From a virus, in IMG/VR virus record IMGVR_UViG_3300048927_000209: a stretch of 64,000 nt of DNA. One strand, 5' to 3'. Under the pieces are notes generated by a model that saw only the letters and a list, made by a program, of their open reading frames with translations, had not been told where the DNA came from and did not search any database. Shown one piece after another: positions 1 through 54,979 of this stretch. A program made the position numbers and the translations under genes. Each line of letters begins with the position of its first letter. Position 1 is the stretch's first letter.

Positions 1-322
1 GAGTTTCACATTTCCCAATCAACTCAACATGTAAACGACTATTTTCCTCACGGAGATCTAACACCTCATCGCCTAATGCTTTATTATGCTGTAACAGCAT
101 CCGGTTTTGCTGCAACATGTCCGTCATGTTAGGGTAGATGCTCGTCATGCCACGAAGAACACCTAACTCGTCAACGAACTGCCTGTTCTGCTTACTCAAG
201 TTCTCGTATTCACGATAGCCATAGATGACCAAACCTGAGAGCATAACAATGGATGCGATCAGCGCATAATAAATCCCTTTGTTTTTGCGCGAAGTGCTGT
301 ACCGGGTGGCGCCGTCGGACAT
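1..322 (-). CDS. partial CDS (3' end outside window): N-terminally membrane-anchored coiled-coil protein
   Basis: Own translation from ATG 322 (alt in-frame ATG 361): MSDGATRYSTSRKNKGIYYALIASIVMLSGLVIYGYREYENLSKQNRQFVDELG...; open to window edge; TM helix then Leu/Gln-rich heptad-like region; not in ORF track (no stop in window). Confidence 0.5.
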   Translation of the reverse strand, partial: MSDGATRYSTSRKNKGIYYALIASIVMLSGLVIYGYREYENLSKQNRQFVDELGVLRGMTSIYPNMTDMLQQNRMLLQHNKALGDEVLDLREENSRLHVELIGKCET

Positions 323-5910: not shown

Positions 5911-6042
5911 CTAGAACTGCAGGTATGTGACAGTGGACTTAACATGCCCACGGCCGGCTTTCTTATTGATGTAGTTGAGTGCAGCGGTGGCTGCAAGCGA
6001 AACAACTACGGAGACAACAACTTTGGTAATGATCGATTTCAT
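5911..6042 (-). CDS. mini membrane protein (43 aa, below ORF-track cutoff)
   Basis: Own translation MKSIITKVVVSVVVSLAATAALNYINKKAGRGHVKSTVTYLQF; preceded by CTTAACCTGTTGGAG leader. Confidence 0.5.
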   Translation of the reverse strand: MKSIITKVVVSVVVSLAATAALNYINKKAGRGHVKSTVTYLQF

Positions 6043-6054
6043 GATAATGCTCCA

Positions 6055-6065
6055 ACAGGTTAAGG
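6055..6065 (-). promoter_or_regulatory. conserved leader element CCTTAACCTGT (pre-SD)
   Basis: Minus strand CGCCTTAACCTGTTGGAGCATTATC-ATG. Confidence 0.4.
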
Positions 6066-6078
6066 CGAAACAAACTAC

Positions 6079-7035: not shown

Positions 7036-7073
7036 CTTTTTAATATAGGTCTGAGATTTTCTACAACTCAAAA
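7036..7073 (-). promoter_or_regulatory. promoter-like motif, class A (TTGAGT-N18-TATATT)
   Basis: Minus strand CTTTTGAGTTGTAGAAAATCTCAGACCTATATTAAAAAGGTG. Confidence 0.5.
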
Positions 7074-7414: not shown

Positions 7415-7452
7415 ATCGTTGATATAGGTCTGAAATCATCTGCAGCTCGAAA
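7415..7452 (-). promoter_or_regulatory. promoter-like motif, class A
   Basis: Minus strand GTTTCGAGCTGCAGATGATTTCAGACCTATATCAACGATGTG; ~40 nt upstream of ATG 7377. Confidence 0.5.
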
Positions 7453-10004: not shown

Positions 10005-10040
10005 CCATAGTGATATAGGTTTAAAATCTGATGGAAATTG
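10005..10040 (-). promoter_or_regulatory. promoter-like motif, class A core (ACCTATATCAC)
   Basis: Minus strand TTTCCATCAGATTTTAAACCTATATCACTATGGTG, ~55 nt upstream of mini-ORF 9869-9952; at the divergence point with the + block. Confidence 0.4.
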
Positions 10041-10073
10041 TATGTTATTCAACTATTAAAACAGGAACTACTT

Positions 10074-12246: not shown

Positions 12247-13368
12247 ATGTTAGAAATGCTTGTAGGGGGTGGGGGTAAACCTTACTACCCGAAATCAGGA
12301 CCCGGACCGAAGTCTCTTCAGTACGGCAACGAGCAAGCGGGTTACTTTGGTACGGTAACCCAATCGCAGCTTTTCACCCCAACCGAAATTTTCAATCAAT
12401 TGAACATCCCACTGTTAGGTCCGTCACTTGACGCCAGTATGCTGTGGGGTAAGTTCTATTACCAGGGGACCATTGTCTATATTCCAACCCGACCAGTTAA
12501 CACCACTGCCCAGGTGTTCAGCTGGGAGTCGTTATACCAAATGGGGTTGGTGTACGGAACAGACAACGACGGGGCTTATCCTTCACCGGTATCAGCACCC
12601 TATAACCAGCGTACACTTATTGTGAAAAAGCTGGAGAACAAAGTTGCGGGCTTTAAAGTGCGGCTGCCGAGTGCGGGAAACACCGACCCCATGACAGCAA
12701 CGTTATCCGCAGCGGGTGAGTTCAGTGTGTTGCTCAGCAACATCATTGCGTTGGGCGTGGGTGCTGGCACAGGGAAATGGGACAGTTTAGACACCACGGT
12801 GTTTAATAGTACGTCCTACGAACTGTCACTGACCTCGCTTTTAAACAGCACCACGTCTGCATTGTACGGTCGTGGCCTTACCAGCAATCCAGGGCAGTAT
12901 TCGTACAGTAATCTATCAAAGACAGGAACCGCCACCACCATTTTGTGGTGGCCTGTTTTGCAATATATAAATCCCGATGAAAACTTGCTCGACTTGATCA
13001 GCTTTACCACCCAGTTACCGCAGCCAATGGCGGTGGATATGTTACAAACCACCGGCGAGTCAACCGGCGGTATTCTCAACGCGTTTAACGTAACGTCGTC
13101 ACCGGTTGCTAAACCGGCACAGGCCTCGGCAACGTACACTGCAGTGGTTTCACCGGTTAACCTTTATCCGTCTGTTGCAGGTCCTGCACCGCGGGTAACA
13201 AAAGTCACTGCCGAACCACTCCAGGGACCCGTCAACATTGTAGTGAGTCATGTCGGCCCCACCCCGGTCCTGAAGGTTGATAACCCGATGACTGTGTTTA
13301 ACCCGTTTGCACCGACAGTGCGTTATGAACCTAAACCACTGACCGGTCTGAAACTCGCCGACCAATAG
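12247..13368 (+). CDS. receptor-binding/tail-fibre-like protein, GPGP-core paralog with MLEMLVGGGG N-terminus
   Basis: SGPGPKSLQYGNEQAGYFG, GTIVYIPTRP, FKVRLP, WWPVLQYINPDENL core shared with six other ORFs; ~120-aa C-terminal extension. Confidence 0.55.
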   Translation: MLEMLVGGGGKPYYPKSGPGPKSLQYGNEQAGYFGTVTQSQLFTPTEIFNQLNIPLLGPSLDASMLWGKFYYQGTIVYIPTRPVNTTAQVFSWESLYQMGLVYGTDNDGAYPSPVSAPYNQRTLIVKKLENKVAGFKVRLPSAGNTDPMTATLSAAGEFSVLLSNIIALGVGAGTGKWDSLDTTVFNSTSYELSLTSLLNSTTSALYGRGLTSNPGQYSYSNLSKTGTATTILWWPVLQYINPDENLLDLISFTTQLPQPMAVDMLQTTGESTGGILNAFNVTSSPVAKPAQASATYTAVVSPVNLYPSVAGPAPRVTKVTAEPLQGPVNIVVSHVGPTPVLKVDNPMTVFNPFAPTVRYEPKPLTGLKLADQ

Positions 13369-13376
13369 AGGTAGCC

Positions 13377-14288
13377 ATGGCAATTAAATTAAGTTGGACC
13401 AACCGTAACACCCAGCCGATCACTACATCAATCTACCGTGGTGACGTGCCACTGGATCGCAATAACTTGGGTACTCCGTTGGTGGTTCTGACCAACAACG
13501 AAACCAGCTGGGTCGATACCACTGCGGCGCAGGGTAACACGTACTACTACGTATTCAAAACCAGCAATGGTAGTGAAACCATTACTTCACGTAACCAGAA
13601 ACAACAGGCAGCTGAAACCCGCGGCCCAGGTTCCAACGTGTTCCAATATGGTGACCGTGAACTGGGCTTGTATGATGTTATCGGTGCGGATATGTTTATC
13701 AGTGCGGCTAACCTTAATACCCTGGTGGGTGGTGCGGTATCTGCCGTTGTTGCGAATAACAGCTGGTACAAGTTAGCCCGTAAGGGTAAAGTGTTTATGG
13801 TACCGGAGCGTGTTATTGGGTATACCACCTCGTATAACGCCCTGAATGCATTGGGGTTGGTCACGGGTAAAACGGTACAGATCAATGGCTTTACCTGGAA
13901 GGTACGCCTCATGCGTGGTTGGCGTGAAGCTGACTCCACCGTGCCGTTGCCTTCTAACGCCCTGAATACGTTTGATACCGCAACGTACAGCCAAACCTGT
14001 GAGTTCAATGATTTTGTATATCCGATGTGTGCACCCACACCTGTTACGCAACGCCTGCCTAACTGGTCGCAAGTCGGGGTAGCGGCACTGTACTCGAGCT
14101 ACGGCAACTACGTATTAACGCAGGAGCTGAGTGCCGAAGGTGACCGCTGTTTTGTACGGCTTATTTCTGGGATCGGTACCAATGAGCGTACGAAGCTTTC
14201 AGCCGGCTCTGTGACTCAGACCGTCGTGCCGGGTACGTCAAACACAAACGTTGGTTGGTGGCCGGTGTTAGAATTGGTGGAGGTGTAA
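13377..14288 (+). CDS. FN3-headed receptor-binding-like paralog
   Basis: N-terminal FN3-like MAIKLSWTNRNT..IYRG..YYYVFKT; core RGPGSNVFQYGDRELG..GKVFMVP..WKVRL; ends WWPVLELVEV. Confidence 0.55.
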   Translation: MAIKLSWTNRNTQPITTSIYRGDVPLDRNNLGTPLVVLTNNETSWVDTTAAQGNTYYYVFKTSNGSETITSRNQKQQAAETRGPGSNVFQYGDRELGLYDVIGADMFISAANLNTLVGGAVSAVVANNSWYKLARKGKVFMVPERVIGYTTSYNALNALGLVTGKTVQINGFTWKVRLMRGWREADSTVPLPSNALNTFDTATYSQTCEFNDFVYPMCAPTPVTQRLPNWSQVGVAALYSSYGNYVLTQELSAEGDRCFVRLISGIGTNERTKLSAGSVTQTVVPGTSNTNVGWWPVLELVEV

Positions 14289-14289
14289 C

Positions 14290-15207
14290 ATGGCAATCAC
14301 TGCTAACTGGACAGCAGTATCGGGTTCCACCGGTTATAAGCTGTATCGTCAGGCTGGTGCAAAAGTTGACCTCACTAATCTGCCAGCCGATGTCGTGTCC
14401 GTTGCCGCGGACAAAACCACGTATCAATACCCTGCATCGGTGAGCAACACTCTCTACTACGTGGTGGTGGCCTCAACAGATGCTAACGGGTTGGTGACGT
14501 TCTCTGATCAGATCATGATCGGTTACTATCCTGATACCGGACCTGGACCGTCTACGCTACTGCGGGGTGATTGGTCATTCGGTTTCTTTGGTGAGGTGCC
14601 GGTGACCGATGTGGCGTCACCTAACGAGATTTATGCATCAGCCTACGCCTTAAAGGGGTCGAGTGCGTTATCACCACAAAACGCCTGGTCGGTGTATTAT
14701 AAGTGTATTGTGGCAGGGCGTATCATCTTCATCCCTGATAATGCGTATGCTAACAACGGACCCACCTTTGAAACCCTTCGTACCGCTGGCTTTGCGTTAG
14801 CGGATTACAGCTATGAAGCTAATGGTGTCAAGGTCGCGCGTAATGGGTTTGAGTTTGTGGCCCGTGTTGCCCACGCAACTGCCGGTCCGCTGACAACCAT
14901 TATCGCTGATCCAACAAAGGCCACGGACGACATCAGTCGTTCTGAACTGGGTATGTTCATAGCGCTGTTTGGTGGTTCTAATGCGCCAGGTGCAGTTCCT
15001 GCCGTTGCAGGTAATACACCATACACCAAGTACAGACTGGGCGATTACTCAGTACCGACATACCAAAATACGCTACCCACAGACACCTTTATTAACGCCC
15101 AGAGTTCAGGGGTGGTTGCTGCCACGGTGGTCAGCTCGGCAACGGTATCAGCGGTTGCAACCAGCGCGTCGTCACGCGCTAACCTTGTTCTCGAACTGCT
15201 GTTCTAA
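14290..15207 (+). CDS. FN3-headed receptor-binding-like paralog
   Basis: MAITANWTAVSGSTGYKLYR..LYYVVVAS; DTGPGPSTLLRGDWSFGFFGEV; GRIIFIP; ends NLVLELLF; 1-nt gap to upstream stop. Confidence 0.55.
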   Translation: MAITANWTAVSGSTGYKLYRQAGAKVDLTNLPADVVSVAADKTTYQYPASVSNTLYYVVVASTDANGLVTFSDQIMIGYYPDTGPGPSTLLRGDWSFGFFGEVPVTDVASPNEIYASAYALKGSSALSPQNAWSVYYKCIVAGRIIFIPDNAYANNGPTFETLRTAGFALADYSYEANGVKVARNGFEFVARVAHATAGPLTTIIADPTKATDDISRSELGMFIALFGGSNAPGAVPAVAGNTPYTKYRLGDYSVPTYQNTLPTDTFINAQSSGVVAATVVSSATVSAVATSASSRANLVLELLF

Positions 15208-15222
15208 TAGGAGGGCTTTACC

Positions 15223-16104
15223 ATGGGTGTAAAACTCACCTGGCAGAATCGTGGTACCGTGCCACTGGATTCTATTCGCATTTATCGTTCAGCCACCAAA
15301 ACCGGTGATTTGGTATTGATTGACACCATTGCGGGTAGTGCATTGACGTATGAAGACACCACCATGCCAACCACTAACCGGGTTTATTGGTATGCCGTTG
15401 CTTCGGTATTGAACGGCAATGAAACGTTGGGTGCACGCACACCACTGGGTCATTTCCCCGACAGTGGACCTGGGCCGAAGAACATCGCCATTGGGGATTG
15501 GGAGTTTGGTTATTTCGGTGAACTCACCGCCGATATGGCTTCCGTACCTACCTTTGATGAGGTCGCTTCAGCTGCGGGATTGAACCGGTCAAGTGACACC
15601 CCCACTAAAGTACGTAAGTGGGTGGTGGGTGGTAAGATCATCTATATTCCGAATGCAGCCATCGGCACGTATACACAGCCTAACATGCTGACGTATAAAT
15701 TGATGAAACCGTTTAACTCGGACAGTGCGGCCGTGTTATCCATTGGTAAAGGCAACTACGGATTCAAAGTCCGGATACCACGCTCTTCCAATGTGAACGA
15801 CACTGCAGCCATGTCAGACATCAATGGTGATAGCAGTAAATACAAAAGTGAACTGTGGGCCTTGTTTGCGCATCATGTGAATCTGGATTCAGCGTCGGAA
15901 GCCAGCCGTTACTTTAAAGGGGCGTTTCGTCTGGGGGATGAGACCAGTATATATTCGACATCAGGTCGTATCTTCCTGGGTTATGCAAATGCCACGACGT
16001 ATAACGCCTTGATTTGGTCGCAGTGGTCCAGTACGTCATCGTACCCATTTAGTAACTCAATTGCGGCGTACCTGGTGTATGAATTGGATTTCGGCACCAC
16101 GTAA
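15223..16104 (+). CDS. FN3-headed receptor-binding-like paralog
   Basis: MGVKLTWQNRGT..IYRS..YWYAVASV; DSGPGPKNIAIGDWEFGYFGEL; GKIIYIP; FKVRIP; bidirectional terminator follows. Confidence 0.55.
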   Translation: MGVKLTWQNRGTVPLDSIRIYRSATKTGDLVLIDTIAGSALTYEDTTMPTTNRVYWYAVASVLNGNETLGARTPLGHFPDSGPGPKNIAIGDWEFGYFGELTADMASVPTFDEVASAAGLNRSSDTPTKVRKWVVGGKIIYIPNAAIGTYTQPNMLTYKLMKPFNSDSAAVLSIGKGNYGFKVRIPRSSNVNDTAAMSDINGDSSKYKSELWALFAHHVNLDSASEASRYFKGAFRLGDETSIYSTSGRIFLGYANATTYNALIWSQWSSTSSYPFSNSIAAYLVYELDFGTT

Positions 16105-17663: not shown

Positions 17664-19334
17664 TTATTTACGGGTCAGCACATAACGGCTGTACGGCAAT
17701 GGCGGTGAGACTGATTCATCCTTGAGATCTTCAGCCAGGATGGTAACATCCCACTTGCCATTGATGTCACTGCCGGTCAGTGGGAAGAACACATCCGCAT
17801 GGGTGTCGTCACTGTGGATACTGGTGAGATACACTTTCTGTGTGTCCTCCATGAACAGATCATACACTTCACCACCACCGATGACAAAGATCTCTTTACC
17901 TTTGGCCACGCGGTTAGCCAGTAACAGCGCTTCTTCTTTGGTGGTCACGCACAGCAGGTTGTTGTAATCAACTTCATCGCCACCGCTCAGCAGGCTCAGG
18001 TCAGCATGCTCTTCCTGGTAACGCATCACGTACTCAGGATCACGGGTCAACACGATGTTGATGCGGTTTGGCAGTGGTTTACCAATTGACTCAAAAGTCT
18101 TACGACCCATGATCACAACGTTGCCGGTGGTGGTTTGGCGGAAGAACTGCAGATCTTCCTTAATACGCCACAGCAGATCAGAACCAATCCCAATGCCATT
18201 GGTCGGGCCCACTGCAACAATCGCTGACACGGTTGACTTGTCCATGTCCGGATCACCAAACGGCATTTCTGCTTCAGGCTGTTGAATAGGCAACAGACCC
18301 AGCCCTGCACGGATACGCTGTTCGTTCTTGCGATACACCTCTTCCGCTTCTACCGGACGCTCATCCAACCCGAAGGTAGTAGAGATCTCCAGTGAAGAAT
18401 CGGCTGCACCCACAAAGAAACGCATTTCAGCACGGATGGCGTTTTGCGACTCCATGTAGGTATGGGTGATCATGCAGTTAATTTCAGGGTTGATGCTGCC
18501 ACGAACAGAAACGGTCAATCCATCCGTTAACGCCGTGAACTCATGCAGGCCGAACATGTCGTTCAACATCTTGTTCAGATTCTGAGCGAGTATCGTACGC
18601 GTAGGAATATCCATCACTTCCATGTCGCCGTAATTGATGCCCAGGATCAGTTTACGATGCAGTTCCAACAACACATTGATCAGACCGTACTGGGTCAGGT
18701 TGCTGTCCGAGAACAGTTCTTCACCGCCGTCACGCAAAACAGTCAAACGTGACTGCAGCGTAAAGGTGTTGTTTTCCGCCACCTCGTACTGGTAAACCAC
18801 GCCATCGAAGAACACGCTACCCACTGTGTTCATGACAACGTGATCGTTGGTGGTCAGACGACTGTACAGTTCGTGTGGCGATGGCACGTGTTCGCTGTGT
18901 TTGACTTCAATCTCCTGCCACGCCTGCCCTGGGATCATGTAACGGATGATCAGGTCGTAACCGTCAGTGGTGGTCACCTCGACGTACAGGGTTCCGCCAT
19001 TAACCGCTTCCGCCACATTGAGTTTGACATCCAGCCAATCTGCGGTCACGAAATCGTGTTGACCCGTGGTCTGGTGTAAGGTGTTCATGACCAGCGTCAG
19101 AATGCTCTCGGCAAACAGATCGGTTGGCTTAACGTAATCACGCTCAAACAACGCTTCCAGATAGACGTAGGACAGGATCTTCTTGTCGGTCCAGTGGATC
19201 GCATCACGGTCATGCACGGCACGCACCACGGTGTCATTCACATAAAGAATGACCGGCGCAATTTCGTTGTCCTCTGGATTACGGACAATCGTCAATACCT
19301 GGTCGACAGGCGTGAAGTTTAATTCGTTGCTCAT
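17664..19334 (-). CDS. folA: dihydrofolate reductase fused to a ~366-aa N-terminal domain of unknown function
   Basis: C-terminal 190 aa: [70 protein letters not shown] (DHFR motifs). Start at ATG 19334 (SD TAAGGA); track start is TTG. Confidence 0.85.
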
Positions 19335-19376
19335 AAACAATCCTTACGGGTATGGGTAATGGTTAATGGGGTTACA

Positions 19377-25154: not shown

Positions 25155-25862
25155 TTATTTGAAGATTGGGTGAGGTGGGGTGAAGTTAGCGCTGTAGCGT
25201 GCAAAGTTGTATAACCCAAATTCAGGCATATACAAATCACCCGTACCACTGTTTGCTTTACCAATGGTAAAAGCCGATAACCCACCGGACAGATCAAACG
25301 CCCCGTTGAAATCAGGCAGGTTATAGGTGGTACCTGTTCCAGAGGCCAACATTTGTTGGACGCCGTCAATGTAGAAGACGCAGCGGTTGTTCTTACGTAC
25401 CAACGCGTAGTGATGCCAACCGTTTCGCAATGAAGTCCCGGTGACGTTCGGGCTGAAGTTACCGCCATTACCCAGATCGATCCCCACCTGCATACGCTGA
25501 CCATAACCGCCGTTGGCCACGCGAATGGTCAGGTACTTACCGTTCTTAAACGTGAGCAACAACAGGGGGTAGTAGTCGCCCGGGAGTGTCGACATCCAAC
25601 ACCAACACTCCAGGGTAAAATCACTGGACCCCAATGTGTCAATTGCACTCAGCGGTGTCACGTTAGCAAAAGTACCCAAGCAACGTAGGCTTTGCGTATA
25701 CCCACTGATTTCTGCGCCCGAACCATGTGCGGTAATCACACCACCGGAATAGCTGGTTACTGCCGGTGTACTGGTGCTCTTCCCCTGATCAAAGTTAAAG
25801 CCCATGACCGGGGTGCCTGGCACAATACTCCCTCTACTCCTCCCCATAATCATTTCTAACAT
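25155..25862 (-). CDS. concanavalin-A/LamG-like lectin-fold protein with MLEMIMG N-terminus
   Basis: SSDFTLECWCW..GWHHYALVR..VFYIDGV..FTIGKA..LYMPEFGLYNFA typical of LamG (Laminin_G_3). Track ATG 25910 lies in the terminator tail; start moved to ATG 25862/25865 (SD GGGGTG). Confidence 0.65.
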   Translation of the reverse strand: MLEMIMGRSRGSIVPGTPVMGFNFDQGKSTSTPAVTSYSGGVITAHGSGAEISGYTQSLRCLGTFANVTPLSAIDTLGSSDFTLECWCWMSTLPGDYYPLLLLTFKNGKYLTIRVANGGYGQRMQVGIDLGNGGNFSPNVTGTSLRNGWHHYALVRKNNRCVFYIDGVQQMLASGTGTTYNLPDFNGAFDLSGGLSAFTIGKANSGTGDLYMPEFGLYNFARYSANFTPPHPIFK

Positions 25863-25882
25863 CATCGCACCCCATTGTTTAC

Positions 25883-25900
25883 ATCTACCGTTATAGAATT
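25883..25900 (-). promoter_or_regulatory. promoter-like motif (variant TCTATAACGGTAGATGTAAAC)
   Basis: One base shorter than CTATATCACGGTGATGTAA at 55754; between terminator 25905-25933 and ATG 25862. Confidence 0.3.
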
Positions 25901-25904
25901 TGGT

Positions 25905-25933
25905 CAGCATAAAGGCAGGACCGAAGTCCTGCC
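25905..25933 (-). terminator. C(UUCG)G hairpin terminator with UUUAUGCUG tail
   Basis: Minus strand GGCAGGAC-TTCG-GTCCTGCC + TTTATGCTG; after tdk. Confidence 0.75.
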
Positions 25934-25940
25934 CGTATGA

Positions 25941-28747: not shown

Positions 28748-29698
28748 TCAGCTCGTTGGAATGAGTTCAAGGATGCCAAAGACGTAATGCGTGGTACTGC
28801 TGCCGGACAGCGTGGCGCCCAAGCATTGGTTGATCCCGTTTCCGATAATTAAGCTTATCACGGCGTTGCTGGTATTACCGTGCTGTGTTAACACCGGATT
28901 AAGGTTACTGATGAGTGAGCTTGTACCAGCGTGAAGCTGAGCCGGTGCCAAACCTTGTGCAATGGCCGATGCTACCCCTACCCACCCCACAGTGAGTGAT
29001 GAGATCATGGATGCTTCGGAGAACGAGGTTTCACGGACGATGGCGGTTGTCACAGCCACGTTGGTTCTAATGTCACCGGTTTGCTGTGCCTTAGGTAGCC
29101 GGGCGTAAAACTCGTACGAACCAAACACCACTTTCTTATTCTGCACTACAGGGGTCGATCCAGCGGTGGTGGTTGCATGTGGCACTGTTGCCTCACCCGT
29201 CCCTAACATCGCCCCGGCGTTGTAGAGTGCGTTAAGTGTTGATACCGGTGCCTGGGTGGTTTGTCTGACTGGGTTGTTGGGGATAAACAACACTTTGCCG
29301 TTACACGCCATTTTGTACCAGGTGGTGATCGCTGTGGTGTATGCGGTACCTACCGGGAATGCGGCTTGCATATCGGTCGAGGAAACGAAGTCAGACACGT
29401 TGAGCGTGCCGAAGTAACCGAACTCCATGTTACCCCGTGCTAACACCTGAGGGCCCGGACCGGTATCGGTGATTGCACAGAAAGGTGTTATTGCGCCCGG
29501 GATTTCATCCGACGCACTCAGCACAGCATTAATACGGTAGTAGTACAGCACGTTGTTGGACGCATTGCTGTCGACGTACGACGTGGCAGTATTTGCCAGG
29601 GTAGTGAGCAGCGCAAGGTTAGTTGGTGACGTCCCGCGGTAAACTTTGAAGTTAGTGACCCCGGTATTGCGGTTGGACCAATTTAGTGTAATCGCCAT
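28748..29698 (-). CDS. FN3-headed receptor-binding-like paralog
   Basis: MAITLNWSNRNTGVTNFKVYRG..LYYYRINAV; DTGPGPQVLARGNMEFGYFGTL; GKVLFIPNN; ends FGILELIPTS. Confidence 0.55.
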   Translation of the reverse strand: MAITLNWSNRNTGVTNFKVYRGTSPTNLALLTTLANTATSYVDSNASNNVLYYYRINAVLSASDEIPGAITPFCAITDTGPGPQVLARGNMEFGYFGTLNVSDFVSSTDMQAAFPVGTAYTTAITTWYKMACNGKVLFIPNNPVRQTTQAPVSTLNALYNAGAMLGTGEATVPHATTTAGSTPVVQNKKVVFGSYEFYARLPKAQQTGDIRTNVAVTTAIVRETSFSEASMISSLTVGWVGVASAIAQGLAPAQLHAGTSSLISNLNPVLTQHGNTSNAVISLIIGNGINQCLGATLSGSSTTHYVFGILELIPTS

Positions 29699-29700
29699 GA

Positions 29701-30525
29701 TTATTCCACCAATTCTAACAAGAAGATTGTGATACCAGTGACGGCATTACCAACAGGGTACCAGGTGATCGCACCGGTTGACGGGGTGCGGCCATTAACA
29801 TACCCGGCGTTGGTCTCACGACAGATGATCGCGATACTTTTGTTCTGGTTGCCCAATTTACCCAGGGTTTCACCATCCATCGGTGCCAGCTGGTTAAAGT
29901 GACACAGGCACAGTTTAATAAATTCGATATCGTAATCCCCGGCGGTAGGTCGGCTGGCATTGTCCCAAGAAGAGGGCATGCCTTTGGGGAGTCTCGCCAA
30001 ATAGTTAAAGCCGTCGAAACTTACTGGCAACCCGGCGTTGTTATTCAGCAGCGAACCAAATGAGCTGTACGACGACGCGATCAAGTTGGTTGTTATTGGT
30101 ATCGCAACCACGACCTTACCGTTGTAGGAGAACTTAAGTCCAGCTGGTAGGACGTTGTCAGCGATTCCTGCAGTCGGCATACCCAATTGGGTCAAGAGTG
30201 AAACTGTGCGACCAAACGATACGCTATCAATAAATCCGTACGCGTCATTTCCCAACACCACTGTAGGGTTGCCGTGACCACGAACATACTGTGCGACCAT
30301 TGGGTAGTTACGGGTTGAGGTCCTAACACCGGCTGACACAAACTCAATCACGTAGTAATACGTGGTGCCCAGTGTTACGCTGGTGTCTTTATACGTGGTT
30401 TCACCGTTGGTCAACGTCACCAGTGGCGTACCCAAATTCTTACGATCAAGTTCAGCAGTGCCGCGGTAGATGTTCGTTGTAACCGCACCACTGTTAACAT
30501 TAGTCCATGCAAGGTTAATAAACAT
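29701..30525 (-). CDS. FN3-headed receptor-binding-like paralog
   Basis: MFINLAWTNVNSG..NIYRGTAELDRKNLGTPLVTLTNGETTY..YYYVIEF (closest to 13377-14288); ends FLLELVE; 2-nt gap to neighbours. Confidence 0.55.
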   Translation of the reverse strand: MFINLAWTNVNSGAVTTNIYRGTAELDRKNLGTPLVTLTNGETTYKDTSVTLGTTYYYVIEFVSAGVRTSTRNYPMVAQYVRGHGNPTVVLGNDAYGFIDSVSFGRTVSLLTQLGMPTAGIADNVLPAGLKFSYNGKVVVAIPITTNLIASSYSSFGSLLNNNAGLPVSFDGFNYLARLPKGMPSSWDNASRPTAGDYDIEFIKLCLCHFNQLAPMDGETLGKLGNQNKSIAIICRETNAGYVNGRTPSTGAITWYPVGNAVTGITIFLLELVE

Positions 30526-30527
30526 AA

Positions 30528-31487
30528 TTATTTGCTCACGGTTGGAACGATGGAGTAGACGCCGGCGTTACCTGCATACACATTAGAGGCACTCGTCACG
30601 ACAGGGCTGGAAGCAGTGGACACCAACGGGACTGCAGGTGTTCCCATGACAATAAGGTCGCCTGGTGCACGCAATGTAGTGGTGGTCTGGGTATCGGTAA
30701 CCACAGGTCTTGCAGACGGGTTCGTTAACTTGACATTCAGTGCAAAGATCAAGTTCTCATCAGGGCGAATCAATTCCAACACAGGTGTCCAGCTAAACGA
30801 GTTGTTGTTTGCGTAGAACTGACCGGCGTTCGGTGTCGCCACTTGAGGGTAAGCGTGCACATTACCCTTGCTTATCAATGTCTGCCCGTACGTCCAATGA
30901 TAGTGGATATCCGTGTTGGCATTTAACGTATCCCACGCAATACCGTCTGTAGGTTGCCCATTCATTAAAATGTGACTGTACAGTTTATACTGTTCGGAAT
31001 CCTGAATCGTGGTGGTCGTGACATCGGTCGATAACGCTACTACGGTTTGACTGTTATCCGTAAGCATACGGATTTTAAATAACCAAGAATCCCCGTTAGG
31101 GTCGGTCCATTCAATGTACTGTAATTGGTTCACCGCGGTCAATGCACCTGCCTGAGCAGGCCCTGGACCGTCTACGCCAAAGATGAATCCGGCGTTGTAC
31201 ATTGCTGCATACGTCGCCGTACCGCCCCAAGGTCCGTTTGGGATAAACAGGATCTTGTTATTGAGCACCGCCTTTAACCACCCCGGTGTTGCATTGGATG
31301 TGCCAGTGTAGGCAGAGGTGTTCAGATTACCGACCGCTGCAATCTGACCCAGGGTCGGCATGAGTTTGGTATCAATAATACCTAACCAACCGTCTGTCTT
31401 GTTGCCACCCAGGATTTGTTTGTTTCCTGGGCCAGAGTAAGGGAGAAAGGCTTTTCTATTACCCCCAAAGAGTATACTTTCTATCAT
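30528..31487 (-). CDS. receptor-binding/tail-fibre-like protein, GPGP-core paralog with MIESILFGG N-terminus
   Basis: SGPGNKQILGGNKTDGWLG; NKILFIPNGP; WTPVLELIRPDENL then C-terminal extension (same architecture as 12247-13368). Confidence 0.55.
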   Translation of the reverse strand: MIESILFGGNRKAFLPYSGPGNKQILGGNKTDGWLGIIDTKLMPTLGQIAAVGNLNTSAYTGTSNATPGWLKAVLNNKILFIPNGPWGGTATYAAMYNAGFIFGVDGPGPAQAGALTAVNQLQYIEWTDPNGDSWLFKIRMLTDNSQTVVALSTDVTTTTIQDSEQYKLYSHILMNGQPTDGIAWDTLNANTDIHYHWTYGQTLISKGNVHAYPQVATPNAGQFYANNNSFSWTPVLELIRPDENLIFALNVKLTNPSARPVVTDTQTTTTLRAPGDLIVMGTPAVPLVSTASSPVVTSASNVYAGNAGVYSIVPTVSK

Positions 31488-32155: not shown

Positions 32156-34051
32156 TTACACTGCGTCTTTCTTCAGCTGGATGTAACGGATCTCGGATTT
32201 CGCCCAAGCTGCTGAGCTAACCAAAACACGTACAGCCAGGTGATCGTTCTTGATCTGGCCTTTCAGTAACAGATGACCTTCGTTAGTTACACCAACGCCA
32301 GCCTTCTGACCAATCGACCACTGTTCTGCAACGTCGGTTACATTCGTCAGTGCTGCAATCTCTTCGTCCGCCATTGGGGCAACGTCTGGACGGAAGTAAT
32401 AACAGACACCGGCTTCAGCACGGGTCTTACCGGTTGCATTGATCACAGGGATCACATTACGGGTATAGGCTTTTAACTGCACATACACCATGAAGGAACC
32501 GGCACTGACCTTCACTGTCTTCACAGCCAGGATCGGTGAGGAACCACACGGCATGAGTGTCGCACCCACAACACCGTCTTTCTTCTGCTGAACACGAAGC
32601 AGTGTATTACCGCCACCTTGACGGGTATCATCAATGTCATTGAGGTTAGCCCCAACAGACAAGAAGTTACCGGTACCGATGAAGTTGATGTCAATCTGGT
32701 CACCCTCTTCAGGTGAGTACCAGCGACCCACACGGAACCACTTCGGTGCTGCTGCAGAGTTGCTGATTTTGTTACGGGACATCATGGTGCCTGGGTCGAG
32801 GTAACCATCGATGAACAGACCGTGGTTACTGATATCAACACGCCCACGCTCCCACAGACTCAGCCATTCAACCACAGCTGGGTCTTCCTTGTAATCGATA
32901 GACGAGCCTGACTGCAGACCCGTTTGGTTTTCAATCAGTCGAGCGTAAGTCGCCTTGAGTGGGTTCTTACAGTCTTCCATATTGAAACCGTTGATGATCC
33001 ATTGTCCGTTACTGATATCACCTGGGTTCTCGGTGTGTTCAATCCATCCGTTGGTGATAAAGGACTGCGTACAACGTGGCAGGTTAAAGACTTTCCCACC
33101 CACGCACTTCTGTACGTTGAAGTTACTCATGTCAATGGCGGTAGAGTGATCCCACACTCCCGCAGCACGACCAGACCACTTAGCGGCGATAACATCACCG
33201 CGGCACTCTGAGGCGTACCACTGATGCAGTTTGGTATCCAGCGTATCAACCAGCTGAACACACGTACCGCCAATCTGTTCAAAGCGAACAGAACACATGT
33301 TAAAGAACTGACCACCAATGATGGTGTTGTTGTAGACGCCTTTATTGTTCGGGGCAGCTTCGGTAGCCTTGCCTCGGAAAATAAAGTTAGCCAGCTCCAC
33401 TTTACGCGCCGCAATATCAACAATGAAGTTGCTATTGGCGTCGGTGTAAACAATGGTGCTGCTCAGGTAACCGAAGTTAGTCTGACCGCCAGTGAGTTTA
33501 AACAGGTTGAGTTCATTAGGGAATTTAATCTGAGAAATGAAGCACTCGCCAGCGGGGTAACGAACGCCCACGCCCTGCATGTTCTTCACACTCCAATTGT
33601 ACATGGCAATAGCCGCGGCTGCCGTATCAGTCACCCCATCCATCTTCGCCCCAAAATGCGTGACGTTGATAGTGTTAACATCGTGACAAGCACGGACCCA
33701 CCGGAAACCATTCCCAGCTGCCACCATCCCGCCATCATCGGTACCTTTACTCAAGTAACCAATGAATTCTCCACCACCATCGGTAGAGCCGGCGTTCCAC
33801 CCTTTAAGCGAAATACGCATACCGTCTTTCTTGGGCTTCAATTGACGCAGAGCCGCAAAGGACTCGACCTGGCCAATCATACTCAGGGCATCGCTGGACG
33901 CTAACGAATCAGCAGACAGATTGTTTTTCAGAAGATCGGTGATCTGGGACAAGGGGAAGCTTTTCAGCGTACCGTCTTTATCCTGGAATACCACTTTACC
34001 GCCTGCATCGGCGATATCCTGAATTTGCAATACAGTGCTATTGTCGGCCAT
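32156..34051 (-). CDS. tailspike / polysaccharide depolymerase (pectate-lyase-3-type beta-helix)
   Basis: INVTHFGAKMDGVTDTAAAAIAMYNW matches the N-terminal signature of Pectate_lyase_3 tailspikes (v..FGAkGDGvtDdT.Aiq.A); 631 aa; terminator follows. Confidence 0.7.
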   Translation of the reverse strand: MADNSTVLQIQDIADAGGKVVFQDKDGTLKSFPLSQITDLLKNNLSADSLASSDALSMIGQVESFAALRQLKPKKDGMRISLKGWNAGSTDGGGEFIGYLSKGTDDGGMVAAGNGFRWVRACHDVNTINVTHFGAKMDGVTDTAAAAIAMYNWSVKNMQGVGVRYPAGECFISQIKFPNELNLFKLTGGQTNFGYLSSTIVYTDANSNFIVDIAARKVELANFIFRGKATEAAPNNKGVYNNTIIGGQFFNMCSVRFEQIGGTCVQLVDTLDTKLHQWYASECRGDVIAAKWSGRAAGVWDHSTAIDMSNFNVQKCVGGKVFNLPRCTQSFITNGWIEHTENPGDISNGQWIINGFNMEDCKNPLKATYARLIENQTGLQSGSSIDYKEDPAVVEWLSLWERGRVDISNHGLFIDGYLDPGTMMSRNKISNSAAAPKWFRVGRWYSPEEGDQIDINFIGTGNFLSVGANLNDIDDTRQGGGNTLLRVQQKKDGVVGATLMPCGSSPILAVKTVKVSAGSFMVYVQLKAYTRNVIPVINATGKTRAEAGVCYYFRPDVAPMADEEIAALTNVTDVAEQWSIGQKAGVGVTNEGHLLLKGQIKNDHLAVRVLVSSAAWAKSEIRYIQLKKDAV

Positions 34052-34121: not shown

Positions 34122-34610
34122 TCAAGGCCAGGTCACCACAACCTTACCGTTGGTGCCGTTGGAGCCAGATGAATTTCGATTACCAGTCCCTCCGGGTGAA
34201 CCTAACCCGTTGCCGGCATTTGACCCAGCGCCACCTGCCAGACTGTTTCGGCTTCCACCGCCTCCTTCACCACCCAACGCAGACCCCTGACTGACACCAT
34301 TAATCAATAGCGCCAGCGTTTCCCCTTTGCCGCCGTTACTGCTGCTGCTTCCACCTGTTCCTCCTTTACCCCCAGAGAAAGAAACCACGTCCCCTCGTTT
34401 GAGTGTTTTAATTACCGACACTAATTCACCATTGCCCCCTTTACCCCCAGGGTAAGTATTTGTTGATCCACCAGCCCCTGCGCCAGCGCCGTATAAATTA
34501 AAGGTCACGTCTCTTGACACAGTGGAAACCCATGTGTTGTTGTAGAGAATCGTTTGATTGCCGGTACCTGGCTCCGCAACAGAACCACCTAATGTCATTA
34601 TTTCCATCAT
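34122..34610 (-). CDS. glycine-rich fibre-like protein with MMEIMTLGG N-terminus
   Basis: GAGAGGSTNTYPGGKGGNGE..GGKGGTGGSSSSNGGKGE..GGEGGGGSRNSLAGGAGSNAGNG; start moved to ATG 34610/34607 downstream of promoter-like motif. Confidence 0.55.
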   Translation of the reverse strand: MMEIMTLGGSVAEPGTGNQTILYNNTWVSTVSRDVTFNLYGAGAGAGGSTNTYPGGKGGNGELVSVIKTLKRGDVVSFSGGKGGTGGSSSSNGGKGETLALLINGVSQGSALGGEGGGGSRNSLAGGAGSNAGNGLGSPGGTGNRNSSGSNGTNGKVVVTWP

Positions 34611-34630
34611 GCAATAGCCTCTGCATTTTT

Positions 34631-34650
34631 TAGGTAGAATATAGGATTTA
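34631..34650 (-). promoter_or_regulatory. promoter-like motif (ATCCTATATTCTACC)
   Basis: Immediately after terminator tail, 20 nt upstream of ATG 34610. Confidence 0.4.
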
Positions 34651-34651
34651 T

Positions 34652-34681
34652 CCGGCATAAAGGCCAGACCGAAGTCTGACC
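34652..34681 (-). terminator. C(UUCG)G hairpin terminator with UUUAUGCCG tail
   Basis: Minus strand GGUCAGAC-UUCG-GUCUGGCC (G.U on - strand, C.A on +) + TTTATGCCGGA. Confidence 0.75.
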
Positions 34682-34688
34682 CGTATGT

Positions 34689-35740: not shown

Positions 35741-36336
35741 TTACCAATGGCCTCGAGTAATTTGCCAATGACGTGCGGAGTCGCCTGCTCCTTCATGCGT
35801 TTCAGAATACTGTCACGAATGGTGTAGTCATCACGGCTAAGTGGTCTGGTGCGGTCCCTCAAAGAGTCCAGCCAGGCGTTGTATTCATCCACAGTGCCGC
35901 GCAATGCCAGGAACTGCATGTTCAGTTGGCGGTTATTTAATTGTTCCCGACGCGTGGCATTCTCAAACCCCTGTTCAGGGTTGTGCATAAAAACCATTGC
36001 TGCGTCATGACTTTCTAACAGTTCAGCGCAATACTTATCGCATCTTTCTTTGAGGGCGATGTAGTTCTCACTGTCGCGTGGTATTGTTGTGAAGCCATCC
36101 ACCACCGCTAATACGCGACAACACGTGGAAGGCGAAATCTCGTTTGTCAAAGCCATTTTAATGAAGGCATTGACACGTGCAGAGAGTTCATCTTCTTTTC
36201 CTTGGATATGTGCGTAAGGCACGATGATCTGGCTGAGTAAACCAATAAAACCAGCATCCTGTCGGTGAGCGAATTTTTCGTGAGCGGCTTCCTCAAAAGC
36301 TTCGCGGTCTTTGGTTAGCAGTTTTTCCAGTTCCAT
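35737..36336 (-). CDS. hypothetical protein (199 aa)
   Basis: Leader CCTTAACTTGTAGGAGC 8 nt before ATG. Confidence 0.55.
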   Translation of the reverse strand: MELEKLLTKDREAFEEAAHEKFAHRQDAGFIGLLSQIIVPYAHIQGKEDELSARVNAFIKMALTNEISPSTCCRVLAVVDGFTTIPRDSENYIALKERCDKYCAELLESHDAAMVFMHNPEQGFENATRREQLNNRQLNMQFLALRGTVDEYNAWLDSLRDRTRPLSRDDYTIRDSILKRMKEQATPHVIGKLLEAIGK

Positions 36337-36348
36337 GATAATGCTCCT

Positions 36349-36359
36349 ACAAGTTAAGG
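36349..36359 (-). promoter_or_regulatory. conserved leader element CCTTAACTTGT (pre-SD)
   Basis: Minus strand CCCTTAACTTGTAGGAGCATTATC-ATG. Confidence 0.4.
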
Positions 36360-36398
36360 GTAAAAGAAAAAGCCTGGGACGAACCCAGGCCTTGTATC

Positions 36399-42756: not shown

Positions 42757-42996
42757 TTAGTTATCATCGTTACCAGGTTTACCCTGCAGGAAGTTTTCAA
42801 CATCGATTTTAAGCATATCGAGTTTACCGTTCAGTTCCAGCTCGGAGACCATCGCACCGCTCAGATAACCTTTGAGGTATTCGTCGAGCTTAAGTGGGTT
42901 AACACGCTCACCATCCATCACCATCCCGTGACGCTTCATGTTGGCAACAATCACAGCAACATCAACTTCAATCTCAACAACAATCTTCTTTGACAT
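42757..42996 (-). CDS. hypothetical protein (79 aa)
   Basis: Leader ATTAACCCGTAGGGGA. Confidence 0.5.
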   Translation of the reverse strand: MSKKIVVEIEVDVAVIVANMKRHGMVMDGERVNPLKLDEYLKGYLSGAMVSELELNGKLDMLKIDVENFLQGKPGNDDN

Positions 42997-43013
42997 GACA
43001 AATCCCCTACGGG

Positions 43014-43370
43014 TTAATGGTGAACGATTAATGCGTCAGTCTTGGCCGCAGCCATTGACCAACTAATGGAACGACTGATCTGGTCGGTGAAGCGACCCTT
43101 CTCATCCACAACGATAAACATCGCGTTGGAGAGTCCTTTTGTCATGTTCTCAGCCACACGGGGGTCGTGCGGGTAAGTACGGAATTCGATACGCTCAAAC
43201 TGCTCTTTGCTCAGGTTCTCCTGAAACAGGGCTTTGAGTTCACTGCGACTACCCACGTCCGCAAAGACAACAGGTTTTTGGTCTGAATCGAATGCCGTTT
43301 TAACATACGCAAGGTAAGTTGCAATCATGACGTTGCTAAAACGGTACTCGGTTTTAATCTCTCTAATCAT
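43014..43370 (-). CDS. hypothetical protein, tandem paralog A (118 aa)
   Basis: MIREIKTEYRFSNVM..FIVVDEKGRFTDQ..LIVHH parallels the next ORF; SD GGAG. Confidence 0.55.
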   Translation of the reverse strand: MIREIKTEYRFSNVMIATYLAYVKTAFDSDQKPVVFADVGSRSELKALFQENLSKEQFERIEFRTYPHDPRVAENMTKGLSNAMFIVVDEKGRFTDQISRSISWSMAAAKTDALIVHH

Positions 43371-45411: not shown

Positions 45412-45759
45412 TTAACAGGTGTGGTAGACGATTTCGGGTTGATCGGGGAACGACAGATGGTTGTCAATCCGCATCCGTCGATCAGTAATGAACGTAGGGT
45501 TTAACGCGTCCAGCTCAGGCTGAAGCTCACTATTACGTCCCAGGCACAGATATTTAGGCAAACGATGACCACTGATTCTCAGGATCACGTACACCTTGTT
45601 GTTGAGTATGGCATAGTCACCATCCTCTTTGATCTGGTATGCTTCCAGAATCGACATGTTGTCAATTTGTGGACGGCATTTACGGATCAGCTGACAAAGC
45701 TGATTAAACATGGGTTGATCAATGTTGATCTGTTTTGTGTTGACAATCATGAATGGCAT
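45412..45759 (-). CDS. hypothetical protein (115 aa)
   Basis: Leader TCTTAACTTGTTGGGG. Confidence 0.55.
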   Translation of the reverse strand: MPFMIVNTKQINIDQPMFNQLCQLIRKCRPQIDNMSILEAYQIKEDGDYAILNNKVYVILRISGHRLPKYLCLGRNSELQPELDALNPTFITDRRMRIDNHLSFPDQPEIVYHTC

Positions 45760-45771
45760 AGTAACGCCCCA

Positions 45772-45781
45772 ACAAGTTAAG
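45772..45781 (-). promoter_or_regulatory. conserved leader element CTTAACTTGT (pre-SD)
   Basis: Minus strand TTCTTAACTTGTTGGGGCGTTACT-ATG. Confidence 0.4.
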
Positions 45782-45783
45782 AA

Positions 45784-54932: not shown

Positions 54933-54944
54933 GACAGCGTTCCT

Positions 54945-54955
54945 ACGGGTTAAGG
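54945..54955 (-). promoter_or_regulatory. conserved leader element CCTTAACCCGT (pre-SD)
   Basis: Minus strand ACCTTAACCCGTAGGAACGCTGTC-ATG. Confidence 0.4.
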
Positions 54956-54979
54956 TTTAAGGGTTTAAAGTGATCACAC

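Follow-up and report, generated by a model that had tools for sequence, protein, structure and literature searches.

Seven paralogous ORFs in two inverted clusters

The DNA analyzed here, termed the window, is the whole 64,000-nt stretch of IMG/VR record IMGVR_UViG_3300048927_000209. It carries seven related ORFs, four on the plus strand (cluster 1) and three on the minus strand (cluster 2), at the positions given by an earlier sequence-only reading (Table 1; ORFs are referred to by the position of their 5' end). As that reading had proposed, they form one paralogous family: the seven can be aligned from end to end, nearly every pair gives a significant BLASTP match, and an HMM built from them, searched against every window ORF of 60 aa or more, matched exactly those seven. 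Identity among the window paralogues is 20-35%. In pairwise BLASTP the top pair, 13377 and 30525, shares 35% over 185 aa (E 1e-25), 30525 being the closest paralogue of 13377; the closest paralogue of 12247 is 31487, at 28% identity (E ~1e-17).

Both clusters have the same order, a long member followed by members with an FN3 module, in opposite orientation, and the 12,643 nt between them agree with the spacing of ~12.6 kb first estimated. No DNA-level repeat joining the two clusters was found in the window, which fits an old duplication. The dS of 13377 versus 30525 is beyond estimation at 35% protein identity.

Three neighbors to which the sequence-only reading drew attention, a tailspike, a LamG protein and a Gly-rich protein, are all real, and the tailspike-like EPS depolymerase gene lies 670 nt beyond cluster 2. 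The genes flanking both clusters are mostly those of DNA and nucleotide metabolism, including a helicase, a DHFR-like protein, thymidine kinase, RNA ligase and an AAA ATPase; no tail module was found among them.

Table 1. Members of the family, their domains and neighboring ORFs in the window, with orthologues in pEa_SNUABM_37
Feature	Position	Strand	Description	pEa_SNUABM_37 orthologue (identity)
12247, L-class, 373 aa	12247..13368	+	No FN3	gp132 (47%)
GPG core of 12247	aa ~10-245, nt ~12274-12981	+	Alpha/beta, AF2	
C-terminal tail of 12247	aa 250-373, nt ~12994-13365	+	Pro/Val/Thr-rich, predicted disordered	
13377, B-class, 303 aa	13377..14288	+	FN3 + GPG core	gp131 (67%)
FN3 of 13377	aa 1-~78, nt 13377-13610	+	Foldseek and PDB profile search	
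GPG core of 13377	aa ~82-303	+	AF2	
14290, C-class, 305 aa	14290..15207	+	FN3 + core; class HMM C 327 vs 58 bits for next class	gp130 (46%)
15223, second C-class, 293 aa	15223..16104	+	FN3 + core; class HMM C 348 vs 58 bits; extra, fourth gene of cluster 1	gp129 (59%)
LamG ORF	25155-25910		PF13385	
29698, C-class, 316 aa	28748..29698	-	FN3 + core; class HMM C 352 vs 92 bits; last gene of inverted cassette	gp111 (48%)
30525, B-class, 274 aa	29701..30525	-	FN3 + core, degenerate motifs (GHG); class HMM B 327 vs 56 bits	gp110 (47%)
31487, L-class, 319 aa	30528..31487	-	Core + ~80 aa C-terminal extension, no FN3; class HMM L 395 vs 59 bits; first gene of inverted cassette	gp109 (36%)
EPS depolymerase/tailspike-like ORF	32156-34051		phrog_4250, E 3e-231	
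Gly-rich ORF	34122-34658			

Motifs, domains and predicted structure

Four core motifs had been described as common to all seven ORFs. A regex check upheld this for two of them, the GPG...G...G(Y/F)FG block (7/7, with a GHG variant in 30525 and a final D in 13377 and 30525) and F/W-x-(V/A)-R (7/7), and found the others degenerate in some members. GK(I/V)xx(I/V)P occurs in six of the seven, 30525 being deviant, and W(W/T)PVLEL is clear in 12247, 13377 and 31487, degenerate (xLEL) in 14290, 15223 and 30525, and GILELI in 29698. Conservation along the proteins is highest in the FN3 domain and the GPG block, and core residues 181-280 are the most variable.

The FN3-like N-terminal module reported for five of the seven proteins is an FN3 domain by both PDB profile search and Foldseek. 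The family profile matched the FN3 domains 3B4N and 3MPC at E 1e-3 to 4e-3, the matches being the FN3 domain of the PelI pectate lyase and an "Fn3-like protein", and the module superimposes on the PelI/Pel3 FN3 domains with a Foldseek probability of 1.00 and an rmsd of 2.1-2.5 A over 76 residues. The Pfam fn3 model gave no match to it at E<=1. The two members lacking FN3 had been credited with about 120 extra C-terminal residues each; extensions are present in both, their lengths being ~130 residues in 12247 and ~80 in 31487. AF2 modeled the B-class protein 13377, FN3 and core together, with pLDDT 92.7 and pTM 0.78, and the L-class protein 12247 with pLDDT ~90 in the core and 30-40 in the tail. 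The L-class tail is thus predicted to be disordered, with conserved short motifs: WWPVLQYINPxENLLDL, PPP..VDL and a C-terminal Y.P.P.TG.KL.DQ are kept among orthologues of 12247.

The core itself, which the sequence-only reading could not name, remains without a name after structure prediction and searches with Foldseek and against PDB and Pfam. There was no Pfam match to the core in 91 family members, no PDB sequence match and no significant Foldseek match in PDB. In the AF2 models it is a confidently predicted alpha/beta fold without a named family or solved structure. Among its best four Foldseek PDB matches, three (TvpA 2Y3C, PvdO and PorK) share an FGE-type/C-type-lectin-like fold, at values that are not significant (E 0.06-1.3, probability <=0.2, TM 0.14-0.21), and we treat this likeness of the predicted core as a lead only. 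A DGR variable protein (CLec/FGE fold) was considered and rejected: the fold matches are not significant, the window has no TR/VR-like repeat, and there is no sequence support. Assignment to a known fiber, spike or RBP family was likewise rejected, the proteins matching no tail-category PHROG and the core having no Pfam match and no significant PDB fold or sequence match.

A known family of giant-phage particle proteins

The seven proteins belong to a known, functionally uncharacterized family of giant-phage particle proteins. All of them match the PHROG 1062/3589 profiles at E 1e-26 to 1e-55 (12247 phrog_3589 at E 1e-51, 13377 phrog_1062 at E 1e-55); PHROG 3589 is labeled "virion structural protein". 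Their closest characterized homologues are SPN3US gp145-153 (SPN3US_0145-0153; BLASTP E 1e-20 to 1e-35), the core-bearing sub-group of what Thomas et al. (2016, 2017) and Scheuch et al. (2023) describe as "paralog family B". The best SPN3US match of 12247 is gp145 (E 9e-35), the closest studied relatives of 13377 are gp146/149/152, and 14290 and 15223 match gp147 (E 5e-20) and gp153 (E 2e-21), respectively. Each of the seven has a 1:1 orthologue in phage pEa_SNUABM_37, with identities of 36-67% (Table 1), and that phage has a further tandem LBC triplet.

All tblastn matches of the family are to phiKZ-like jumbo phages of 197-316 kb. A 94%-identical protein was found on a 279.7-kb contig, and the contigs of the long representatives that we looked up reach about 250-275 kb. 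The family comprises 1758 cluster representatives at E<=1e-3 (clusters at 50% identity). Elsewhere among jumbo phages, Kelch, Laminin_G_3, Big_6/Big_13, Big_2 and DUF285 (BspA-type) domains occur as fusion partners of the core. The Kelch fusion is seen in phiKZ gp83, an annotated virion protein with the core at its N terminus (HMM E 2e-19). Unlike the window genes, gp83 is a single gene, without FN3, whose core is followed by a Kelch beta-propeller. The "Kelch-like" protein Q2Z0S6 of phage EL also shares the core (Foldseek BFVD E 1e-8).

Three classes in a conserved L-B-C cassette

The family falls into three classes, L, B and C, and in nearly every multi-member locus examined these are encoded on one strand in the order L-B-C. 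The loci examined included eight genomes outside those used to build the class HMMs; among such held-out genomes the order recurs in phiEaH2 (three times), Wellington (twice), Phobos and ChrisDB (three times each) and L015 (twice), and L010 and L011 have LBCC. One locus, L017, is an exception (L L B C C B). The window arrays read LBCC on the plus strand and an inverted LBC on the minus strand. A three-gene cassette is therefore what has been duplicated, which in turn suggests that the L, B and C proteins form a three-protein complex. The SPN3US papers cited here make no mention of the three-class split or of the cassette.

SPN3US gp145-153 resemble the window set in the core domain, the three classes, the L-B-C order, the FN3-plus-core build of B and C, and their occurrence in a phiKZ-related jumbo phage. 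They are virion proteins, as the window set would be by homology. The SPN3US genes, however, form three tandem cassettes on one strand, whereas the window has two, inverted and 12.6 kb apart, one with an extra C. SPN3US L-class proteins also carry an extra N-terminal domain of ~150 aa, common to gp138-144 and phiKZ gp127, which the window L proteins lack.

Such expansion might also yield dispensable products of rampant gene duplication, without specific role and tolerated in a large genome, a possibility raised by the SPN3US authors themselves. Copy number varies widely among relatives, from one in phiKZ through seven in the window and nine core-bearing in SPN3US to ten at the pEa_SNUABM_37 locus; SL2 keeps a four-gene block that was lost in phiKZ, and the SPN3US genes so far identified as essential include none of this family. 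Against this, the pEa_SNUABM_37 orthologues are kept 1:1 at 36-67% identity although the paralogues stand at 20-35%, class identity and gene order persist from genus to genus, motifs and fold are conserved, and the SPN3US homologues are produced and incorporated in virions. We consider dispensability highly improbable.

Location in the virion

The identification of the seven as virion structural proteins is supported by the PHROG 3589 label and by mass spectrometric detection of the SPN3US and RisingSun homologues. In SPN3US, gp145-153 were recovered at full level in tailless head particles, with head/WT PSM ratios, where read, of 1.06-1.67 compared to <0.07 for tail proteins (PMC10052503 Table S2); the known tail proteins all fall more than 10-fold in tailless heads (PMC10052503). 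These homologues are of low copy, belong to the head fraction and are not cleaved by gp245 (PMC10052503 Tables S2/S5/S6; PMC5105663/PMC5694885). PSM per kDa is 3.6-10.7 for the SPN3US family members, compared with 11.7 for the portal, which has 12 copies, and 285 for the major capsid protein. Transferring this by homology, at only ~25-36% identity between SPN3US and window proteins, we infer that the proteins of the window phage are head-associated too.

The sequence-only reading suggested a branched multi-receptor adsorption apparatus. On this view the seven would be receptor-binding proteins of the tail or baseplate, serving as its alternative tips or side branches and working with the EPS depolymerase tailspike. 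FN3 domains are common in tail fiber and baseplate proteins, other jumbo phages have the core joined to lectin-like and propeller modules, and the EPS depolymerase gene (phrog_4250, E 3e-231) lies close to cluster 2. In addition, another sub-group of SPN3US family B, gp138-144, is homologous to phiKZ gp127 (HMM E 2e-29), which the 2026 phiKZ atlas places in the outer baseplate. However, gp127 and gp138-144 have no domain in common with the window proteins. The link to gp127 runs only via the N-terminal domain of SPN3US L-class proteins that is missing here; the gp138-144 HMM matched those N-termini and none of the window proteins, and comparison of the core profile with that of the gp127 family by hhalign gave 0.2% probability. 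As judged by these profile comparisons, the name "paralog family B" in the literature covers two unrelated domains. Furthermore, the phiKZ atlas screened predicted tail proteins and gp83 was not placed, and the genes around both clusters are those of DNA and nucleotide metabolism. A location in the tail or baseplate was rejected on the head/WT ratios, at least 1.06 for SPN3US gp145-153 and <0.07 for tail proteins, which are data of the homologues. The branched tail apparatus is thus not borne out, since the SPN3US homologues keep their full level in tailless heads and the flanking genes include no tail module; we regard receptor binding from the tail as improbable. A ligand-binding role sited on the head is conceivable.

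Presence in the head fraction would also accommodate internal proteins that are packaged in the capsid and may enter the host with the DNA, in the manner of the phiKZ-type inner-body/ejection proteins. SPN3US heads contain much disordered internal protein (PMC7552025), the family-B proteins gp141, gp143 and gp160 were marked "Head ejection?" (Thomas et al. 2017), and the 3.5 A phiKZ capsid has no ordered external density assigned to gp83. Yet none of SPN3US gp138-154 is cut by the prohead protease, their N-termini being intact or only Met-trimmed (PMC10052503 Table S6), whereas cleavage does occur in gp53 and gp54, which are abundant ejection proteins, and in gp47 and gp50. It was the gp138-144/160 sub-group, whose proteins have no core domain, that received the "ejection" label. 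Modules of the FN3, Ig, LamG, Kelch and BspA types are typical of exposed binding proteins rather than packaged ones, and phage Ig-like domains are surface-exposed; the partners of the core thus point away from packaging. Membership in the phiKZ-type internal head/ejection family was rejected, PF12699 being present in 0/91 members and the SPN3US homologues being unprocessed. We think an internal location unlikely.

No family member is found in solved virion structures; phiKZ gp83 is absent from both published ones, the 3.5 A capsid model and the 40-protein atlas. SPN3US capsids show external density without assignment (PMC7552025).

A possible head-borne complex

We favor, as the probable explanation, that the window carries two copies of an L-B-C cassette of phiKZ-related jumbo phages whose products are head-associated and likely form a three-protein, externally exposed complex. 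All seven proteins are built on one alpha/beta core, to which B and C add an N-terminal FN3 and L a C-terminal tail. The classes are encoded together in the same order and duplicated as a unit, which makes it probable that one protein of each class joins in a complex; the L tail would be its flexible anchor. Exposure on the particle exterior is probable in view of the modules attached to the core, FN3 in the window and Kelch, LamG, Ig-like and BspA-type ones in other jumbo phages. The complex may serve as an accessory decoration or weak adhesin, and duplicated cassettes would give variant surfaces, the C-terminal half of the core probably being the most variable part. The evidence for the complex and adhesin proposals consists of gene order and domain content. 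Some observations run counter to the favored explanation: the copy number is low, unlike a 260-copy hexamer decoration; the EPS depolymerase gene adjoins cluster 2; and Thomas et al. tentatively marked some family-B proteins "head ejection?", that is, internal.

T4 Hoc offers a likeness in possible mode of action only: it too is head-associated, non-essential-looking, uncut by the prohead protease and of Ig-superfamily-type domain structure, and a Hoc-like knob is present on SPN3US hexamers (PMC7552025). It differs in that PDB searches gave no sequence or fold match to it, and in being one protein of ~155 copies, whereas the window family consists of three-class cassettes, of low copy in SPN3US.

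A more specific and rather doubtful proposal is that each cassette encodes a capsid-mounted three-protein adhesin, anchored by the disordered L tail and binding through the variable half of the core, with two such devices made from the seven genes. If true, cassette duplication and divergence would have produced a head-borne, multi-specific attachment system alongside the tail fibers. An adhesive role on the capsid surface is possible, and we infer it only from the FN3 modules here and the Kelch, LamG and Ig fusions elsewhere.

For the window, the outcome is mostly a correction: by homology, these would be head-type virion genes rather than a tail adsorption module. The genes extend a known, unsolved family, whose three-class L-B-C organization goes unmentioned in the SPN3US papers cited here. 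Heads of phiKZ-type jumbo phages contain ~50 different proteins, most without an assigned place or role, and this family, widespread at more than 1,700 clusters at 50% identity, is among the largest paralogue expansions known in one phage genome. The conserved cassette, the core without a significant PDB match and the division of "family B" into two domains provide concrete targets for structural and genetic work, and the cassette provides a testable hypothesis, that of a three-protein head complex.

Seven paralogous genes in two clusters

All seven ORFs that the sequence-only reading had assigned to one family were found in their expected places in the window, and a full-length alignment of them was obtained. 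Pairwise BLASTP matches were significant for nearly all pairs, and an HMM built from the seven sequences picked only these seven among the window ORFs, in agreement with a paralogous family of seven. In the closest pairs, one member comes from each cluster: 13377 with 30525 (ORFs are named by start coordinate; 35%, E 1e-25) and 12247 with 31487 (28%, E about 1e-17). No DNA repeat joining cluster 1 to cluster 2 was found in the window, which argues that the cluster duplication is old, as had been proposed. Gaps between genes inside each cassette are 1-15 nt, and a scan of cluster 1 for sigma-70 promoters and terminators gave nothing exceeding shuffled expectation.

The motifs quoted for the family were recovered, with small deviations in individual members. 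ORF 30525 has a GHG variant and lacks the GKxxxxP motif. Three members have a clear W(W/T)PVLEL ending, which is degenerate in the others. The extra C-terminal stretch ascribed to two members, put at about 120 residues, does exist, but measures about 130 aa in 12247 and only about 80 aa in 31487. The original seven-gene observation is confirmed as genuine and was described with care.

Relatives among jumbo phages

Searches of Pfam with the seven proteins produced no matches. In PHROGs, all seven matched phrog_1062 and/or phrog_3589 ('virion structural protein') with E values of 1e-26 to 1e-55. No phage genome matched the locus by megablast; relatives were found at the protein level, where tblastn matches were exclusively to phiKZ-related jumbo phages (Erwinia, Salmonella, Pseudomonas, Ralstonia and others). 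The closest sequenced phages are the Erwinia phages pEa_SNUABM_37 and pEa_SNUABM_48, the first of which has 1:1 orthologues of every one of the seven genes (36-67% identity) in an identical arrangement. The counterparts in phage SPN3US are SPN3US_0145 to SPN3US_0153, which were assigned to 'paralog family B' by Thomas et al. (PMC5105663, PMC5694885).

When 1.84 billion representatives were searched with a profile, 1758 clusters matched at E<=1e-3. Some of the cluster representatives are very long, with the core repeated several times, and the contigs of those looked up, which measure between a few kb and about 250-275 kb, suggest jumbo-phage genomes. In BFVD, a database of predicted viral structures, all 36 matches at E<=1e-3 were to jumbo-phage proteins, the majority of which bear the name 'virion structural protein'. 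The seven genes belong to a known, uncharacterized jumbo-phage virion protein family.

In the phiKZ-like phage SL2, at least three genes of a four-gene block annotated 'virion structural protein' are family members. The block is absent from phiKZ, where a 96-nt ORF matching the SL2_021 C-terminus at 93% identity looks like the remnant of a deletion.

Features of the window and of compared phage loci
Feature	Position	Strand	Content
Cluster 1	12247-16104	+	ORFs 12247, 13377, 14290, 15223; order LBCC
Cluster 2	28748-31487	-	ORFs 29698, 30525, 31487; order LBC
558-aa protein	17664-19340	-	DHFR domain only at aa 367-527 (phrog_316)
LamG protein, 251 aa	25155-25910	-	PF13385; amid nucleotide-metabolism genes
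EPS depolymerase/tailspike-like, 631 aa	32156-34051	-	phrog_4250, E 3e-231; Pfam none
Gly-rich ORF, 178 aa	34122-34658	-	GGxGG-type runs; internal 75-nt repeat at 34352/34427
TGATATAGGTCTGAAA... motif	7041-7072, 7420-7451, 10011-10042, 55755-55786	+	four copies
34-44-nt motif	6037-6070, 36331-36364, 42991-43024, 45754-45787, 54927-54960		..CATGAyAA..CCyACrrGTTAAGG..
GC-rich hairpin (CGGGCAGGGCTACGGCTCTGCC...)	2416-2452, 25899-25935, 34653-34683	both	intergenic
SL2 four-gene block	L005:4904-9541		SL2_018-021
phiKZ PHIKZ_p90	L007:22929-23024		
phiKZ gp83	L008:35347-36861		
phiKZ gp127	L021:32271-33143		

Conserved L-B-C cassette

Reciprocal BLAST sorted the family members into three classes. Class L, without FN3 and with a C-terminal tail, holds 12247, 31487 and SPN3US gp145/148/151; class B holds 13377, 30525 and SPN3US gp146/149/152; class C holds 14290, 15223, 29698 and SPN3US gp147/150/153. 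Class HMMs were scanned against the window, pEa_SNUABM_37, SPN3US and twelve IMG/VR loci, and the order L-B-C on one strand was seen in nearly all multi-member loci; it holds also in eight genomes left out of HMM building. Among these genomes, the triplet occurs three times in phiEaH2 and Phobos, three times with an additional L in ChrisDB, and twice in Wellington and in locus L015, while L010 and L011 read LBCC. Directly beyond the cassette matching cluster 2, pEa_SNUABM_37 has one more tandem LBC. The sole deviating locus, L017, reads L L B C C B. Because the L-B-C order is kept across loci, it is the triplet that is maintained and duplicated as a unit. No mention of the triplet was found in the published SPN3US work searched for it, and a cassette organization of the family has not been noted in the SPN3US literature examined.

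Predicted structure and domain partners

An AlphaFold2 model of ORF 13377, made from a 91-sequence alignment (pLDDT 92.7, pTM 0.78), predicts that a beta-sandwich occupies aa 1 to about 78 and that a mixed alpha/beta core comes after it. The N-terminal module is FN3 by both Foldseek and PDB profile search, as had been read from the sequence; its best matches are the FN3 domains of two pectate lyases, PelI and Pel3, which superpose over 76 residues with an rmsd of 2.1-2.5 A. In class B, conservation is highest in FN3 and in the GPG block, and variability peaks at aa 181-280, the C-terminal half of the core. For the FN3-less ORF 12247, the core is modeled confidently (aa 10-245, pLDDT about 90) and the C-terminal tail (aa 250-373) is predicted to be disordered (pLDDT 30-40). 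Orthologues nonetheless share conserved motifs in this tail, as would be expected if it folded onto a partner.

The core itself matches no domain family that we could name, as the sequence-only reading had also held. Pfam searches with the seven proteins and 91 homologues left the core without a match; PDB sequence-profile searches with the alignment of the seven and with a broad family alignment gave FN3 matches only, or nothing at E<=10; and in Foldseek searches of PDB with both models FN3 alone was significant. The top core fold matches, TvpA, PvdO and PorK, have an FGE/C-type-lectin-like fold (probability <=0.2, TM 0.14-0.21), a resemblance we regard as a lead only. The idea of a DGR variable protein, raised by TvpA, was rejected, as the window is without template/variable repeats.

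In long proteins of jumbo-phage type the core is fused to Kelch propeller, LamG, Big_6/Big_13 and DUF285/BspA modules, and one homologue of the family carries Big_2. In phiKZ gp83, the family core occupies aa ~13-230, and aa 225-495 form a Kelch beta-propeller that matches PDB Kelch domains (phmmer E 1e-19 to 1e-9); no PDB match to gp83 was found beyond this region. Kelch, LamG, Big and BspA-type modules are characteristic of exposed binding proteins. These fusion partners, the FN3 domain and the absence of protease processing in the SPN3US homologues lead us to favor an external position on the particle over packaged or ejected proteins.

Gene neighborhood

Upstream of cluster 1 lies a helicase (722-aa ORF, phrog_62). 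The interval separating the clusters encodes a DHFR-like protein, an AAA ATPase, thymidine kinase and RNA ligase, and farther along the window are genes for DNA ligase, MazG and thymidylate synthase. The sole adsorption-type neighbor is the EPS depolymerase ORF just beyond cluster 2; the Gly-rich ORF has no PHROG or Pfam match. A tail module is not supported by this neighborhood. The 722-aa ORF was also considered as the counterpart of SPN3US gp155, the head protein adjoining the SPN3US array, and was rejected because BLASTP showed no similarity.

The LamG domain of the 251-aa protein is also found fused to the family core in the jumbo-phage proteins P0109, P0111 and P0120. The N-terminal ~360 aa of the 558-aa protein are uncharacterized (phrog_11777). 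Three short elements recur in the window. One copy of the TGATATAGGTCTGAAA motif, a possible phage promoter or 5' leader element, directly precedes the start (10038) of the helicase gene that heads the cluster-1 gene string. The 34-44-nt motif overlaps minus-strand gene starts and is probably an upstream/RBS element common to one temporal gene class. The CGGGCAGGGCTACGGCTCTGCC hairpin is probably a bidirectional terminator.

Location on the virion

The sequence-only reading had suggested a branched multi-receptor adsorption apparatus. In published supplementary tables, SPN3US gp138-gp154 are listed as 'B / Head', and heads of the tailless 255(am107) type give spectral counts for them that are equal to or above those from wild-type virions; among the values taken, normalized head/wild-type ratios are 1.06-1.67, and those of sheath, tube, baseplate and fiber proteins are below 0.07 (PMC10052503). 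From part of the published counts we computed 3.6-10.7 PSM per kDa for gp145-153, as compared to 11.7 for the 12-copy portal and 285 for the major capsid protein, which points to a low copy number. The studied family members are head components. Since the SPN3US homologues are head-located, being kept in tailless heads, and low in copy number, and since the neighboring genes are not a tail module, a tail receptor-binding apparatus is argued against. For the window proteins, a head location would be transferred from SPN3US homologues at about 25-36% identity.

A baseplate kinship was raised by a weak match of SPN3US gp141 to PDB 9XQD chain 'PHIKZ127'; phiKZ gp127 was docked into the outer baseplate star lobe by a 2026 atlas. 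SPN3US gp138-144 are indeed homologous to phiKZ gp127 (HMM E 2e-29) and gp126 (4e-8). By HMM, only an N-terminal ~150-aa domain is common to gp138-144 and gp145/148/151/154, and the window proteins are without this domain of the SPN3US L-class proteins. The GPG core in SPN3US (L003, 115393-133154) is confined to gp145-153, and profile-profile comparison (hhalign) of the core and gp127 families was negative (probability 0.2%). We therefore reject the kinship: as the gp127/gp138-144 and core profiles differ, the published 'family B' brings together two domains that are unrelated to each other, and where gp127 sits in the baseplate is irrelevant to the window proteins. There is also a discrepancy between the 'Head' assignment of SPN3US gp138-144 by mass spectrometry and the position of phiKZ gp127 in the baseplate.

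No member of the core family was found in solved virion structures, and phiKZ gp83 is missing in both the 3.5 A phiKZ capsid model and the 40-protein atlas. Assignment of gp83 to the neck whisker is unsupported, the whisker being gp34/gp144. Its RefSeq note, 'structural head protein', was discarded as evidence because the tail sheath gp29 is annotated identically, which makes phiKZ RefSeq location notes unreliable. The SPN3US capsid bears an unassigned Hoc-like knob on every hexamer (PMC7552025); gp145-153 were not assigned to it because their low abundance misfits 260 copies. A head-borne adhesin role for the family is possible but unproven. The simplest reading of the cassette is that one L, one B and one C protein would act in a common complex. 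Together with a core domain that has no significant PDB match, the cassette organization is the main interest of this family.
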